From an uncultured Candidatus Saccharibacteria bacterium (GTDB taxonomy: Bacteria; Patescibacteriota; Saccharimonadia; Saccharimonadales; JBBQAJ01): 64,000 nt of DNA. The notes beneath the pieces were generated by a model. The model was not told the origin of the DNA. It saw nothing but the letters and a program-made list of their open reading frames with translations, and did no database searches. Shown piece after piece: positions 29,360-47,669 of the stretch (position 1 is its first letter; each line of letters opens with the position of its first letter). The position numbers and the translations under genes are program-made. Location of the stretch: NCBI GenBank assembly GCA_964597925.1, contig CAZQZT010000003.1:35199-99198 (forward strand), written 5' to 3'.

Positions 29360-29386
29360 TTAGCACTCTTGACCTATGAGTGCTAA
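29360..29386 (+). promoter_or_regulatory. CIRCE (HrcA operator) TTAGCACTC-N9-GAGTGCTAA overlapping the -35 of the clpC promoter. -35 TTGACC is at 29369-29374 and -10 TATAAT at 29391-29396.
   Basis: Perfect match to the canonical CIRCE consensus. The spacer contains TTGACC, with a 16-nt gap to TATAAT. Confidence 0.75.
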
Positions 29387-29447
29387 TTGCTATAATAATT
29401 ACTAGCGAAGCTTTTAGAATAGTCGCTACAAGGATGCGTATAAACAT

Positions 29448-31931
29448 ATGATGCCGCAATCGCCGGATTTTCAAGAATTTTTAAATCATTTAACTGACAA
29501 CGCGCTGAGCAGTCTTAAGCATGCCGATGCGGTTGCCCGGAGTTTTGGTAGTGCTTACGTTGGTACGGAGCATTTGCTATTGGGCGTATTAGCACAAGAC
29601 AGCAGTATGGGTGCTAAGATCCTGTCAGACGCAGGTGTGACACTCGACAGGGCTCGTTTGGTGCTAAACCTGACGCCTAAAACCTTAGTCATAAATCTAG
29701 GAGGCAAGGGGTTAAGTGAAACAGCCAAACTCACGCTCAAGATGGCACAAGACGTTGCTCAAGAATTTAGCCAGGAATACACTGGCACAGAGCACATTTT
29801 ATACAGTATATTGAGTCAAAAGAATGCTAGGGCCACCAAACTGCTTTCTGACATGAATGTAAATGTAGACGGTTTGAATAACGAGCTAGAACAGTTTCTA
29901 AACCGCCAACAATATGACGAAGACAGTGAATCCGCAACCGAAAATCGCAGCAAACGGAGCAAAAAACAACGCAAAACAGCACTGGATTTTTTCGGAACTG
30001 ATTTGACCAATATGGCACGTCAGGGCAAACTTGATCCTGTAGTTGGACGCGAGCCACAAATCAAACGTGTGATTACTATATTGAACCGTCGGACAAAGAA
30101 CAATCCAGTACTAATAGGTGAACCGGGTGTTGGAAAAACAGCCATAGTAGAAGGTCTTGCACAGAGAATAGTGACCGAAGATGTGCCGGATAGTTTGCTG
30201 GATAAAAGAATTGTGATGCTTGATCTAGCGGGAATGATTGCTGGTACCAAATATCGTGGCGAGTTTGAAGAGCGACTCAAAAAAGTCATGGCTGAACTTG
30301 AGCAAGACAAAAAAACTATTGTGTTTATAGATGAGCTTCATCTGATCGTAGGAGCAGGAGCAGCTGAAGGTGCAATGGATGCTGGTAATATACTCAAACC
30401 AGCGTTGGCTCGTGGCAAGATTCAATTAGTCGGCGCTACCACAACTGCTGAATACACAAAGCATATAGAAAAAGACGCAGCTTTAGAGCGCCGTTTCCAA
30501 CCAATTCAAGTACCTGAAACCACGGTCCCCGAGACGCTTGCGATTTTGAAGGGTTTGCGCAAACATTATGAAGCCTTTCACGGCGTAAAGGTGAGCGATG
30601 ATGTACTTGAAGACACTGTCACTCTAGCAAAGCGCTACATCAATGATCGTTTCATGCCAGACAAAGCCATTGACTTACTAGACGAAACAGCGGCACACCT
30701 TCGAGTAGATAAAGGAGTGACACCTCCAGAAGTTCGCAAACTGCAGAAAGAGCTTAAGCTGGTGAATTCTCGTCGCGAAAGGGCTGCCGATAACGAAGAT
30801 TACGAAAAAGCCGCCAAATACAAACAGCGTGCTAGCCAAATTTCTGATGATTTGAAAAAACTAGAAGCCAGTGGTAAAGCAATAAAGCGACTGACTATGA
30901 CCAGTGATGACGTAGCTGACGTGGTAGCCCGCATGACAGGCGTACCAGTAAGCAAAGTGATTCGCTCCGAAGCGAAATACCTGCTAAATCTAGAAAAAAA
31001 CCTTAGTAAATTTGTAATTGGGCAAGGCGAAGCGGTGGGGGCAGTAGCCAAAGCTATTCGTCGTAATCGTTCTGGCGTGGGTGCTGAAGGCCGGCCAATC
31101 GGTTCATTTATATTCCTTGGCCCAACTGGCGTGGGAAAGACAGAGCTAGCCAGAGTATTAGCAAGGGAATTCTTCGGTTCAGAGGATTCGCTAGTTAAGA
31201 TTGACATGAGCGAATTCAACGAACACCACAACGTCTCAAGACTTGTTGGTGCGCCTGCTGGCTATGTTGGCTATGACGACGGTGGACAGCTAACAGACAA
31301 AATCCGTCGCCAACCGTATAGTTTGGTGCTGTTTGACGAGATTGAAAAAGCTCATCCAGATGTTTTTAATATACTACTTCAAGTGCTAGAAGACGGTGTT
31401 TTGAATGATGCAAAAGGTCGTAAGATAGATTTTAGCAACGCTATCATTATCATGACCAGCAACATCGGTGCCGACCGATTGCAGAAAGAAGCCGCTCTAG
31501 GATTTCAAGTTGGCGATAGTGTGAATAAAGAAAACCTGGATAGCCTGCATCAAGCAAACAAAGACAAAGTTCAAGATGCATTAAAAAAGATGATGCGTCC
31601 AGAATTGTTAAACCGCATAGACAAGACGATTGTGTTTAGGGCTTTAACCAAAAAAGACATCTTGACCATTCTAGATTTACAGCTGAACGAATTACGTCAA
31701 CGATTGGTCAAACATGGGTTGGGCTTGCAGTTGACGGCGGGGGCAAAAGATTACTTGCTAGAGCATGGATATGATGCTAAAAATGGAGTTAGGCCAATGC
31801 GCCGTTTACTACAAGACACTCTGGAAGATCACGTAGCGCTAGAACTACTAGACGGCAAATATCAAAAGGGCAACATAATAAAAGTAACAGCCAAAAAAGA
31901 CGACCTGCTGTACACAATCACTTCCGAATAA
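29448..31931 (+). CDS. clpC: ATP-dependent Clp protease ATP-binding subunit ClpC (class III stress AAA+ chaperone)
   Basis: Double Clp_N repeat, two AAA+ modules ([16 protein letters not shown]) and a UVR-like linker. 827 aa, lacking the long ClpB M-domain. Confidence 0.9.
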
Positions 31932-31945
31932 GCTACACTTATCAC

Positions 31946-32917
31946 GTGATAAAAAAGACCAAAATAATTACCCGCATAGCAACTATCGTGGTTGTGGTTG
32001 CTGTACCGGTAGCTATATGGAGCCAGCGTTGGAATATCCATGATGCCATGCGTTTGCGTAGCTATATTCCCTCAGCAGAAGTTTCACAGCTCGCTACAGA
32101 CACGACTATGAATGATTCGGCACGCAGGGTCTTTTATGTTAATCGCCCAGAGCTTCAGGGCAGAGAGGCGTTTAATCAAAGTTGCACTTCGTCTGAGCAA
32201 ACCATTGTTTTGGGGTGCTTTGTATCAGGAACCGGAATATTCTTGCATAACGTTTCAGACGAACGCTTGAAGGGTATTGTGCAAGTAACAGCCGCACACG
32301 AAGTACTACATGCCGCATATCAGCGACTGGATAGGAGGGAAAAAGCGCGAGTAAATGACATGCTTGAGCAAACTTTTGCTAAACTAGATAACCAGCGCAT
32401 AAAAGACACTATACAAGACTATCGAAAAAACGGTGCTGACACTACGAATGAACTTCATTCTATATTAGCAACAGAAGTTCGTGATTTGCCTGCAGAGCTA
32501 GAGCAGTATTATAGCCAGTATTTTACTAGTAGGGTCAAGATAGTAGAATTCTCCGAAAAATACGAACAAGCTTTCACGCAACGAAGGCAACAAGTGGCGG
32601 CGGCAGATGTAAAGTTAGCGGAGCTAAAACAGCGAATAGAAGCAGCCGAAGCTACGCTGCAGACCAAAGCCGAACAACTAAAAGCAGAGCGCGCTAGGAT
32701 GGATGGACTGCTGGCTGCTAAAAATTTCGAAGATTTTAATGCGGCTGTTCCAGCGTTCAACGCCAGTGTGAGCGCTTATAACGCACAGGTTGCGAGCGTT
32801 AGAAGACTAATTGACCAGTACAACGCCCTAGTAGCTGAACGCAACGCTATAGTTACTGAAGAAACAGAACTGGTAAAAGCTTTAGACAGCAGACCAGACA
32901 CTATTCAGACCGAGTAG
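31946..32917 (+). CDS. Membrane-anchored HExxH protein (putative zinc metallopeptidase) with a C-terminal coiled coil
   Basis: N-terminal TM helix (ITRIATIVVVVAVPVAIW), motif VTAAHEVLHAAYQRL and an Ala/Glu/Gln-rich coiled coil at 200-300 aa. Sits between clpC and radA. Confidence 0.5.
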   Translation: MIKKTKIITRIATIVVVVAVPVAIWSQRWNIHDAMRLRSYIPSAEVSQLATDTTMNDSARRVFYVNRPELQGREAFNQSCTSSEQTIVLGCFVSGTGIFLHNVSDERLKGIVQVTAAHEVLHAAYQRLDRREKARVNDMLEQTFAKLDNQRIKDTIQDYRKNGADTTNELHSILATEVRDLPAELEQYYSQYFTSRVKIVEFSEKYEQAFTQRRQQVAAADVKLAELKQRIEAAEATLQTKAEQLKAERARMDGLLAAKNFEDFNAAVPAFNASVSAYNAQVASVRRLIDQYNALVAERNAIVTEETELVKALDSRPDTIQTE

Positions 32918-32934: not shown

Positions 32935-34278
32935 ATGGCGAAAAAAGATTCTGTGAGATATGTCTGTAGCAATTGTGCGGCTGTTAGTTTGACATGGAGT
33001 GGGCGCTGTTTTAGCTGTGGAGAGTGGAATACTTTGCAAGAAGAGATGTCTATAAGTGGCGCTCAGGCTGCAGCTGGTGGCAGGCCTCTTAAAACTCAAA
33101 CAGTTAGCAGCTCTATTGCCAAAGACAATAAGAGACTTACGACTGGTGTCAGCGAGGTAGATACCGTTTTTGGCGGGGGTATTGTATTGGGCAGTATGAA
33201 TTTGATAGCAGGACAGCCTGGGATTGGCAAAAGTACGCTTCTGCTTCAGGTAGCGCATGATTTGGCGCAAAAAAACCGTGTGTTATATATAAGTGGTGAA
33301 GAATCTGCTCATCAGATAGGCCTGCGTGCAGGTAGGCTTGGGGCAGGGGCCAAAAACCTTCAGTTGGCTACCAGTACTAGTGCAGACGACATAGCCACAA
33401 CGATAAGTGAGGCCAAATTTGACCTAGTAGTGGTAGATTCTATACAAACGCTCAACTGCAGTGCTATAGCTTCGGCATCTGGAACTGTAAGTCAAATCAC
33501 CAACAGTACGGCACTACTCACTATGGCTGCAAAACAATCAAACACAGCAGTAATATTAGTTGGTCATGTTACTAAAGAGGGCTCCATAGCTGGGCCTAAA
33601 GTGCTAGAACACGTAGTTGACGTGGTATTGCAGCTAGAAGGCGATCGGTACGGCGGGTTTAAGATTCTGCGGGCGGTAAAAAACCGCTACGGTTCTACAA
33701 ACGAGGCTGGGATATTTGAAATGGCAGACAACGGTCTCAGACCAGTAGATAACCCATCTGCTGCTCTTTTGGCGGAAAGGCAAGCTAGCGACGGCTCTGT
33801 AGTGCTGGCAACCATGGAAGGAACCAGGCCACTGCTAGTAGAAGTGCAGGCCTTGGTAAATCGCACTAGTTATGGTTACCCAAAGCGCACAGCCAGTGGG
33901 ATAGATTTAAACCGCATAAATTTGCTGGTAGCTATGCTAGAAAAACGCACAAAACTGAGCTTAGCTGACCAAGACATCTACATAAATATAGTTGGTGGAA
34001 TTAAGCTGACAGAACCAGCTGCAGACCTAGCCATATGCATGGCAATAGCCACCGCCGCAAAGGGTATGCAGCTCAAACAAAACGCCGTTGTTTTTGGAGA
34101 AGTAGGGCTTTCCGGAGAAGTGCGTCATGTTCCATTTATAGACAAGCGCCTGGCAGAAGCTAAAAAACTAGGCTTTGACGTAGCTATAGGCCCAGTTATA
34201 AAAGGCAAACAAACAGCTAAATACGCCGGCGTCAAAGACGTCCGTTCCGCCCTAAATACATTCTTGGCTAAAGACTAG
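32935..34278 (+). CDS. radA: DNA repair protein RadA/Sms
   Basis: N-terminal C4 zinc finger (CSNCAAVS...CFSCGEW), RecA-like Walker A GQPGIGKST and a C-terminal Lon-like domain. Confidence 0.95.
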   Translation: MAKKDSVRYVCSNCAAVSLTWSGRCFSCGEWNTLQEEMSISGAQAAAGGRPLKTQTVSSSIAKDNKRLTTGVSEVDTVFGGGIVLGSMNLIAGQPGIGKSTLLLQVAHDLAQKNRVLYISGEESAHQIGLRAGRLGAGAKNLQLATSTSADDIATTISEAKFDLVVVDSIQTLNCSAIASASGTVSQITNSTALLTMAAKQSNTAVILVGHVTKEGSIAGPKVLEHVVDVVLQLEGDRYGGFKILRAVKNRYGSTNEAGIFEMADNGLRPVDNPSAALLAERQASDGSVVLATMEGTRPLLVEVQALVNRTSYGYPKRTASGIDLNRINLLVAMLEKRTKLSLADQDIYINIVGGIKLTEPAADLAICMAIATAAKGMQLKQNAVVFGEVGLSGEVRHVPFIDKRLAEAKKLGFDVAIGPVIKGKQTAKYAGVKDVRSALNTFLAKD

Positions 34279-45451: not shown

Positions 45452-46732
45452 ATGCAAGTAAAAGTCACTCATCCATCTACCACAGAAGCTGTAGTCACAG
45501 TTATAGCCAATGACGCCGAAATTAAAAACATCAAAGAGCACGTACTTGGACATTTCCAAGACAGGGTTAAAGTGCCTGGGTTTCGTTCGGGCAAAGTTCC
45601 CGTAAATGTTTTAGAAAAACACGTAGACCCTACGGATTTGCAAACGCAATTTTTAGAAGAAGCTATAGAACAGCTATACAGCCAATCATTGCAGTCGCAA
45701 AAACTGCGACCAGTGGACCGTCCGCAAGTTGCTATAAAGAAATTTGTACCATTTACTACTTTAGAATTTGAAGCCACAGTACCAGTTGTAGGCTCAATCA
45801 AGCTGGCTGATTATAAAAAGGTAAAAAAGACTAAACCAAAAGTTACTATTACAGCCAAAGACGTAGACGAAGTTATTGCGTCATTGCGTAATCGTGCAGC
45901 GGATAAGTCGGACGTAGATCGTCCAGCTAAAGATGGCGATCAAGTACATATAGATTTTAAAGGTACCGACAAAAAAGGTGCGCCTGTTAACGGTGCCGAC
46001 GGCAAAGACTATCCGCTTACTATCGGCAGTAAGGCCTTTATACCAGGGTTTGAAGAAAACCTGGTGGGGCTGAAAGCAAACGAAGAAAAGACCTTTACGT
46101 TGAAGTTTCCTAAGGATTACGGCGTTAAGGCGCTGGCGTCCAAAGACGTGACTTTCACAGTAAACGTCATAAAGGTGCAAGAACTCAAAGAGCCAAAACT
46201 CGATGACGCACTTGCTGCTACAGTAGGACCGTTCAAGACGGTCGCTGAACTAAAAGAAGACATCAAGAAACAGTTGGCAATAGAGCGCCAGCAACAAGCA
46301 GACCGTACGTACGAAAACGACATAATCCAGGAAATTAGCAACAAAAGCACAGTAGATGTGCCCAAAGCGCTGGTAGACGACCAGATAGAGCGTATGGAGC
46401 AAGAAGAGCGTCAAAACCTCACTTACCGCGGTCAGACATGGGAAGAGCATCTTGTGAAAGAAGATGTAGACGCAGACCAGCACAAAGAGCAAAAACGCCC
46501 CCAAGCGCTAGAACGCATAAAAGCCAGCTTAGTCATGACGGAGATTGCCGAAGCTGAAGGTTTGGAAGTTACGCCAGAAGAATTAGATCTGCGCATGCAG
46601 TTACTACGAGCACAGTACCAAGACCCGCAAATGTTAGCAGAGCTAGATAAGCCGGAAGCTCGCAGAGATATAGCCGGTAGAATCCTTACAGAAAAAACCC
46701 TAGAAAAAGTCGTTGGCTACACCTCTAAATAA
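45452..46732 (+). CDS. tig: Trigger factor
   Basis: N-terminal ribosome-binding domain (GFRSGKVP), FKBP PPIase domain and C-terminal arm domain. Confidence 0.9.
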   Translation: MQVKVTHPSTTEAVVTVIANDAEIKNIKEHVLGHFQDRVKVPGFRSGKVPVNVLEKHVDPTDLQTQFLEEAIEQLYSQSLQSQKLRPVDRPQVAIKKFVPFTTLEFEATVPVVGSIKLADYKKVKKTKPKVTITAKDVDEVIASLRNRAADKSDVDRPAKDGDQVHIDFKGTDKKGAPVNGADGKDYPLTIGSKAFIPGFEENLVGLKANEEKTFTLKFPKDYGVKALASKDVTFTVNVIKVQELKEPKLDDALAATVGPFKTVAELKEDIKKQLAIERQQQADRTYENDIIQEISNKSTVDVPKALVDDQIERMEQEERQNLTYRGQTWEEHLVKEDVDADQHKEQKRPQALERIKASLVMTEIAEAEGLEVTPEELDLRMQLLRAQYQDPQMLAELDKPEARRDIAGRILTEKTLEKVVGYTSK

Positions 46733-46778
46733 TAGAATTGCTAGCATAATACTAACAAGTGTGATATAATATTTCTTC

Positions 46779-47018
46779 ATGCATGAGACAATTATAACAA
46801 CAAATGGTTCAATTCAGCCTGAACGCCCCCCGACAATTAACGATTACGATCGACATCTAAACGTTGTGCTTAGTGAATTTCCGCGCCATCGGCTGATGAT
46901 TAGAATAATTGACCTTGCAGTAGATAGACTCGCCCAAACAGATCCGGGTAAAGCAAGTGAACTTGGCTTTAATCTGTTTGAAATGGTAGAAGCATATGAT
47001 AAGAGGCTTAGACAATAA
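46779..47018 (+). CDS. Small hypothetical protein (79 aa) between tig and clpP
   Basis: Preceded by a promoter-like TTGCTA-N18-TGATATAAT. No recognisable motif. Confidence 0.4.
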   Translation: MHETIITTNGSIQPERPPTINDYDRHLNVVLSEFPRHRLMIRIIDLAVDRLAQTDPGKASELGFNLFEMVEAYDKRLRQ

Positions 47019-47038
47019 ACTAGCACTCTTGACTTGTG

Positions 47039-47065
47039 AGTGCTAGTTTTTTATACTGGGCACGT
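47039..47065 (+). promoter_or_regulatory. CIRCE-like operator CTAGCACTC-N9-GAGTGCTAG overlapping the clpP promoter. -35 TTGACT is at 47048-47053 and -10 TATACT at 47071-47076.
   Basis: 8 of 9 positions per arm match the CIRCE consensus. The spacer carries the -35, with a 17-nt gap to TATACT. Confidence 0.65.
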
Positions 47066-47081
47066 AAACAAAGGGTTATAG

Positions 47082-47669
47082 ATGCCGCTTATTCCAACCG
47101 TTATAGAAAGTGAAGGCCGCTACGAAAGAGCCTATGATATTTATTCTCGTCTGCTAAAAGAACGCATAATCTTCATGGGAGAGGACGTAAACCCTCACAC
47201 CGCCAATCTGATCGTTGCACAGCTATTATTCTTACAATCAGAAGATGCCAAAAAAGACATTTACTTATACATAAACAGCCCCGGTGGCAGTGTGTACGAC
47301 GCCCTAGCCATCTACGACACAATACAGTTTGTAAAAAATGACGTTCAGACAGTGGGTATCGGTGTGCAAGCATCGGCTGCTGCATTTTTGCTGAGTTCTG
47401 GTGCTAAAGGTAAGCGCATGATTTTGCCTAACTCCACAGTTATGATTCATCAGCCGTCCTCAGGCACACGTGGCAAAGTAACAGATCAAGAAATTGACCT
47501 TAAAGAATCCTTGCGTGTAAAGAAATTGCTAGAAGGCATCATGGCCAAAAACACTGGCCAAAAACCAGCAAGAATACATGAAGACATGGAACGCGACCGT
47601 TGGATGGACTCGGTTGAAGCCCTGAAATACGGCATAGTAGACGAAGTCATCACTAACCCACCTAAATAG
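47082..47669 (+). CDS. clpP: ATP-dependent Clp protease proteolytic subunit
   Basis: ClpP signature SPGGSV with an active-site Ser, His and Asp in S14 peptidase context. Confidence 0.95.

Follow-up and report, generated by a model that had tools for sequence, protein, structure and literature searches.

The CIRCE/HrcA system is a textbook system. In Bacillus subtilis, the CIRCE elements are found close to the transcription start, past the promoter hexamers, and in model bacteria HrcA is inactivated either by titration of GroEL, which keeps it active, or by its own heat lability. Firmicutes possess in addition a CtsR regulon, which takes in the ctsR-mcsA-mcsB-clpC-radA genes and clpP. HrcA operators were described for dnaK and groE of B. 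subtilis (Zuber and Schumann 1994), and the CIRCE consensus is given as TTAGCACTC-N9-GAGTGCTAA (quoted in PMC7464140). The clpP gene of Streptococcus salivarius is under the control of both CtsR and HrcA (Chastanet and Msadek 2003, as cited in PMC6305308), and the gene order tig-CIRCE-lon is found in Mycoplasma pneumoniae (PMC7737663). In Campylobacter jejuni and Helicobacter pylori, HrcA footprints of 30-40 bp overlap the core promoter or transcription start and are thought to block RNA polymerase sterically (PMC7464140). Full-text literature searches returned no paper in which HrcA is linked to Saccharibacteria, TM7, Patescibacteria or CPR, and transcriptional regulation in Saccharibacteria or other ultrasmall episymbionts is almost entirely uncharacterised. 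We analysed a stretch of Saccharibacteria DNA of 64 kb (the window), in which a CIRCE operator enclosing the -35 hexamer of clpP very probably places the Clp protease under the control of the HrcA stress repressor.

The operators at clpP and clpC

The features of the clpP locus, in coordinates of the window, were as follows.

45452-46732, plus strand: tig (trigger factor), located upstream of clpP in the same orientation
46779-47018, plus strand: orf79, a small open reading frame of 79 codons, with 1 nt between the end of its stop codon and the operator
47014-47052 (arms 47014-47028 and 47038-47052), plus strand: extended inverted repeat with 15-nt arms AATAAACTAGCACTC / GAGTGCTAGTTTTTT, then T residues; possible tig/orf79 terminator
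47020-47028, plus strand: left CIRCE arm CTAGCACTC (consensus TTAGCACTC; position 1 is C)
47029-47037, plus strand: operator spacer of 9 nt, TTGACTTGT, beginning with TTGACT (47029-47034), the -35 hexamer of clpP
47038-47046, plus strand: right CIRCE arm GAGTGCTAG (consensus GAGTGCTAA; position 27 is G)
47052-47057, plus strand: -10 hexamer TATACT of clpP, from the promoter scan
47070-47075, plus strand: Shine-Dalgarno-like AAAGGG of clpP
47082-47669, plus strand: clpP, 195 amino acids (NF001368, 282.7 bits, above cut-off; TIGR00493, 271.7 bits)

The first-pass annotation had placed the palindrome at 47039-47076; it actually lies at 47020-47046, 19 nt upstream, and the palindrome together with the -10 hexamer (47020-47057) has the same length of 38 nt, shifted by 19 nt. 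The 9-N9-9 architecture that it described is correct for the arms and spacer listed above, as is its placement of the -35 hexamer in the spacer, 17 nt before TATACT. Sixteen of the 18 arm positions agree with the CIRCE consensus across the 9-nt spacer, and the two mismatches are the outermost arm positions, symmetrically placed. The promoter scan scored the TTGACT/TATACT pair as a 10/12 match at 17-nt spacing, from which the transcription start of clpP would be expected at approximately 47064-47065. An Rfam search of 46600-47300 yielded no family match.

Around the operator, the genes run hisS - orf149 - tig - orf79 - [operator] - clpP - orf296 (opposite strand) - rpoB - rpoC. The arrangement tig-clpP-rpoB is retained throughout the phylum, and orf79 is unique to the source species: it had no family match and no homologue among 80 other Saccharibacteria species. 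Gene callers annotated it on several contigs of the source species, and it may not be a real gene. An identical ClpP is present on metagenome contigs and in the metagenome-assembled genome (MAG) GCA_943354495.1, and the ClpP relatives found in species-representative genomes (79-88% identity) all belong to Candidatus Saccharibacteria/Saccharimonadales MAGs.

A sister operator with its promoter precedes a second Clp gene.

29360-29386, plus strand: perfect CIRCE (18/18), TTAGCACTC-TTGACCTAT-GAGTGCTAA
29369-29374 and 29391-29396, plus strand: clpC promoter, with -35 TTGACC inside the spacer and -10 TATAAT
29448-31931, plus strand: ClpC-type AAA+ ATPase (Clp/Hsp100), 827 amino acids, with an LGF ClpP-docking loop at residues 684-686

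The TATAAT lies 16 nt downstream of TTGACC, and 61 nt separate the operator from the start of clpC. Given that the LGF loop for docking to ClpP is present, we regard the ATPase as ClpC-like rather than ClpB-like. The AGCACTC/GAGTGCT arms noted at clpP are indeed the same in this site (29362-29384), and the separation of the two sites, put earlier at 17.7 kb, measured 17.66 kb. Profile matches identified the downstream genes as those for ClpP and a Clp/Hsp100 ATPase, in accord with the earlier description of two protease genes. The gene order at the sister site is nusA - [operator] - clpC - orf323 - radA-like, clpC being followed by a 323-amino acid open reading frame without annotation (31946-32917) and then by a radA/sms-like gene (32935-34278). 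This clpC-radA linkage resembles the ctsR operon of Bacillus, with ctsR, mcsA and mcsB missing. The nusA-operator-clpC layout recurs in Saccharibacteria metagenome contigs (L144, L160, L190, L204), conservation of the clpC operator being drawn from metagenome loci that were chosen by the operator pattern itself (L144, L160, L190 and others) and that therefore form a biased sample.

We also observed a CIRCE-like repeat within the clpC coding region at 29589-29617, approximately 140 nt past the start, with an 11-nt spacer and three mismatches (TTAGCACAA...GGTGCTAA); it is probably a chance occurrence.

Conservation and promoter geometry of the clpP operator

Short palindromes are common, and a search for the core with three mismatches performed alone at chance level, both of which would suit a reading of the clpP palindrome as a functionless chance occurrence. 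For sites with no more than two mismatches to the 18 CIRCE bases, the base composition predicts 0.0014 per 64 kb (1e-6 for a perfect CIRCE), yet the window holds two, both just upstream of Clp genes, and a consensus scan of the 64 kb found no third site with up to five mismatches. We compared the clpP loci of 80 other species (L007-L086), of which 79 had DNA upstream of clpP. CIRCE was present before clpP in all 79, at 20-225 nt from the gene; 46 of these operators were perfect, 32 had one or two mismatches and one had four. The rarity expected of such sites and this conservation refute the chance reading, to which we give practically no credence, and bear out the earlier claim of a genuine regulon.

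The statistics that follow are for 80 operators, including that of the window. Positions 4-9 (GCACTC) and 19-24 (GAGTGC) were invariant in 80/80, and positions 2 and 26 nearly so; variation was found at positions 1, 3, 25 and 27. The bases immediately outside the arms were mostly AA before (64/80) and TT after (70-72/80), and DNA farther away was unconserved. The invariance of the core amid variable flanks identifies the element as a site for a sequence-specific protein. The C..G outer pair of the window occurred in 5 of the 80 operators (those of the window and four other species). Another Saccharibacterium has the same variant on its dnaK promoter and T..A in its hrcA operator, and we therefore consider the outer C/G of the window to be an ordinary variant. 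The first-pass annotation suggested that it might tune HrcA affinity.

The outer pair also bears on another reading, in which the palindrome serves chiefly, or in a second role, as an intrinsic terminator, with tig/orf79 transcripts folding and stopping before the clpP promoter. C1 and G27 co-occurred in five species against approximately one expected (Fisher p = 6e-4). The stem AAACUAGCACUC/GAGUGCUAGUUU has a predicted energy of -17.4 kcal/mol (z = -4.5 versus shuffles) and is followed by U residues, the hairpin starts 1 nt past the stop codon of orf79, and in relatives the operator is often close behind tig, several species having only 61-106 nt between tig and clpP. The conserved AA before and TT after the arms would also suit such a hairpin. 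A terminator needs structure rather than sequence, however, and yet 80 species share, without exception, 12 core positions that match the CIRCE consensus. Variants at positions 3/25 are most often the non-pairing A..C (15 species), as against G..C in three, and conservation of the T-run is lost past +30 (T in 27/80 at +31, 23/80 at +32). The 9-nt loop is long, the scan called no terminator, and the same element is found before clpC, hrcA and dnaK in other gene contexts. The covariation of the hairpin is mixed and a purely structural element is unsupported. We consider the terminator reading unlikely; a terminator role would be secondary at most, and part of the conservation of the operator flanks could reflect it.

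Reading of the site as an operator built around a sigma-70-type promoter is consistent with the geometry of the clpP loci. All 80 operators had TTGAC within the spacer, in either of two registers that are 4 nt apart. TTGAC occupies spacer positions 1-5 in register A (the window and 55 other species, 56 in all); in register B (24 species), it occupies positions 5-9 and the hexamer TTGACG enters the right arm. The best -10 hexamer of register A starts 5-6 nt past the right arm, and that of register B 9-10 nt past it. In both registers, the -35 and -10 hexamers are 17 nt (59 species) or 18 nt (19 species) apart. The phase between operator and promoter seems to have changed at least once in the evolution of Saccharibacteria, with neither having been lost.

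An ATG in frame with clpP is positioned 6-9 nt after the -10 hexamer in 30/80 species, precisely at the expected point of transcription initiation, which indicates that the clpP mRNAs of these species are probably leaderless. The predicted leader exceeds 20 nt in 46 species, usually with a GGAGG-like site, and clpP of the window belongs to this long-leader group (24 nt and AAAGGG). Given that the bimodal distribution of leader lengths would otherwise be hard to explain, the predicted clpP promoter appears to be the real one. The shift of the -10 hexamer together with the -35 hexamer, combined with the bimodal leaders, therefore argues that the operator and the -35 hexamer are physically inseparable. 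Leaderless and Shine-Dalgarno-like initiation are both used for clpP in a single phylum.

Operators at other stress genes and the HrcA of the phylum

We scanned metagenome contigs for TTAGCACTCTTGACNNNNGAGTGCTAA and classified the first gene downstream of each of the 120 loci obtained. Short HrcA-like proteins were encoded at 37 loci (217-245 amino acids for complete ones, with PF01628 and PF03444 above cut-off), DnaK at 23, ClpC/ClpB at nine and ClpP at eight, clpC and clpP of the window being extra to these counts. The remaining classes were GroES (five), a zinc-ribbon protein (four), Hsp20 (two), and DnaJ and GroEL (one each). A TAnnnT sequence was present 16-18 nt past TTGAC at 36/37 HrcA, 23/23 DnaK, 8/9 ClpC/ClpB and 8/8 ClpP loci. 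Several of the ClpP and nusA-clpC loci were assigned to Saccharibacteria by 70-90% identity to genes of the window. The operator design that the first-pass annotation saw as shared by clpC and clpP thus extends, in related DNA, to the same operator type before hrcA, dnaK, clpC and hsp20.

The DnaK promoters contained a second CIRCE-like repeat after the -10 hexamer in 22 of 23 cases (L087, L101, L102, L104, L115, L121 and others). Tandem operators were also observed at some hrcA promoters (tandem examples are L208, 2923-2999, and L236, 1424-1499). In the tandem layout, a consensus CIRCE surrounds the -35 hexamer and a degenerate TTGGCACTC or TTGGCAATC-N9-GAGTGCTAA follows just past the -10 hexamer; the clpP and clpC promoters have only the first CIRCE, at -35. 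On contigs of high G+C content (62-69%; L090, L093, L119, L146) from other phyla, the same TTGAC-CIRCE was found before the gene for a small FmdB-type zinc-ribbon protein (PF09723), and no TAnnnT -10 sequence was present at the expected distance at these zinc-ribbon loci. The FmdB-type gene is possibly an unrecognised HrcA target in those phyla.

None of the open reading frames tested in the 64-kb window was hrcA, and likewise none was dnaK or groEL; a tblastn search with the short HrcA proteins against the window and 80 clpP loci gave no match. Proteins homologous to one short HrcA are assigned by NCBI to Candidatus Saccharibacteria or Saccharimonadales and annotated by JGI as heat-inducible transcriptional repressor. 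Their genes head hrcA-grpE-(small ORF)-dnaK-dnaJ clusters. Five Saccharibacteria-labelled hrcA loci were retrieved by protein homology, independently of the operator pattern, and all five carried a register-A CIRCE with no or one mismatch before hrcA, which is the usual signature of autoregulation; operators at dnaK or grpE were present in L218 and L233. None of the Saccharibacteria hrcA operons retrieved with the homologues P0049, P0081, P0110, P0101 and P0012 shares a genome with an examined clpP operator, and none comes from the samples or assembly of the window (SRR8670876, ERZ27280191/2, GCA_943354495.1).

The Saccharibacteria HrcA, at approximately 235 amino acids, is without about 100-110 central residues of the classical protein of approximately 340 amino acids, and retains the NH2-terminal winged helix and the COOH-terminal region with the GPxR motif (37 loci; P0001-P0120; L207-L240). 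A profile search of the PDB aligned residues 16-99 with Thermotoga maritima HrcA (1STZ) at E = 1e-21, the alignment covering the NH2-terminal winged helix only. To judge from a MAFFT alignment with one long HrcA and from partial Pfam coverage, the missing segment may correspond to the dimerising domain that is inserted in the structure of T. maritima HrcA. An AlphaFold model of the short HrcA had a pLDDT of 42.4, probably because the underlying alignment was shallow (69-85% identity).

The short HrcA raises the matter of whether another regulator, either CtsR- or ClgR-like or specific to Saccharibacteria, binds a site that merely resembles CIRCE. Most Gram-positive clp genes are under the control of CtsR or ClgR rather than HrcA (PMC6305308), and the Saccharibacteria HrcA is atypically short, with its binding here being predicted. 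Against this, the site matches the consensus of CIRCE itself rather than the heptad repeat of CtsR, none of the genes tested in the window was CtsR-like, hrcA is preceded by the same operator, and the DNA-binding domain of HrcA is well conserved. We regard control by such a regulator as very improbable. As for a CtsR regulon, the heptad direct repeat RGTCAAANANRGTCAAA occurred at chance level (9 found versus 8.2 expected, with two or three mismatches), and none of the matches was near 29360 or 47020. Given the absence of CtsR boxes, HrcA appears to be the sole stress repressor at clpP.

Proposed control of the Clp protease and comparison with known systems

On these grounds we consider it highly likely that the HrcA operator represses clpP. 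Under non-stress conditions, an HrcA dimer would occupy both arms (47020-28 and 47038-46) and hide the TTGACT between them, shutting RNA polymerase out of the clpP promoter. With the build-up of unfolded proteins, HrcA would lose its activity and clpP would be transcribed from approximately 47064. Titration of GroEL or thermolability of HrcA, carried over from model organisms, would be the stress signal. The clpC gene, 17.7 kb away, would be wired likewise, and this type of operator would also control hrcA-grpE and dnaK in Saccharibacteria. Given that the operator is found at hrcA-grpE, dnaK, clpC and clpP, one repressor appears to govern both the chaperones and the Clp protease.

A broader proposal, which we put forward tentatively and to which we give slightly less than even weight, is that the truncated HrcA is the single master repressor of the entire complement of proteostasis genes (hrcA-grpE, dnaK-dnaJ, hsp20, clpC and clpP) in Saccharibacteria, and probably in the wider Patescibacteria/CPR, acting through operators with the -35 hexamer in two registers and with the hairpin doubling as a terminator for the upstream genes. 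If true, this would amount to a distinct, phylum-wide variant of HrcA/CIRCE control, beyond one more member of the regulon.

The loci described here offer a concrete and testable regulon, consisting of one predicted repressor, one near-consensus operator and defined promoters for clpP, clpC, hrcA and dnaK, which are often predicted to be leaderless. They should be of use for promoter annotation in the phylum and for the reading of TM7x transcriptomes, and they provide a ready candidate promoter, stress-inducible or repressible, for use with the genetic tools that are new to the phylum.

The operator shares with the B. subtilis CIRCE the 9-N9-9 TTAGCACTC/GAGTGCTAA repeat, the repressor family and the negative control of stress genes. 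It differs in that the -35 hexamer is located within the CIRCE spacer rather than upstream of the element. HrcA of B. subtilis targets chaperone operons only, with the clp genes forming a separate CtsR regulon (PMC6305308). With that regulon the present case has in common the targets clpC and clpP and the clpC-radA linkage, which is kept in the window, whereas the site recognised by CtsR is a direct tandem repeat of a heptad rather than an inverted repeat, and is absent here. S. salivarius clpP provides a precedent for CIRCE on clpP and for its membership of an HrcA regulon; its promoter also carries CtsR boxes, of which none was found here, and it belongs to another phylum.

M. pneumoniae is likewise genome-reduced, has a gene for an ATP-dependent protease directly behind tig with CIRCE, and has an HrcA regulon that spans proteases and chaperones; its protease is Lon, however, and lon is also read from the tig promoter, whereas the clpP promoter here lies within the operator. 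The Saccharibacteria case fits the mycoplasma pattern, in which genome reduction puts proteases under HrcA. For C. jejuni and H. pylori, steric exclusion is the mechanism that is also proposed here, but their sites are degenerate and CIRCE-like, are centred on the transcription start and act together with HspR, whereas those described here are near-consensus and centred on -35. The Saccharibacteria case, the two-register placement of the -35 hexamer in the spacer and the truncated HrcA appear to be undescribed. Understanding of HrcA/CIRCE itself is unchanged, a known system being extended, unsurprisingly, to a little-studied phylum: in the clpP operator, the regulon member is new and the phylum is new, and the mechanism is a known one.
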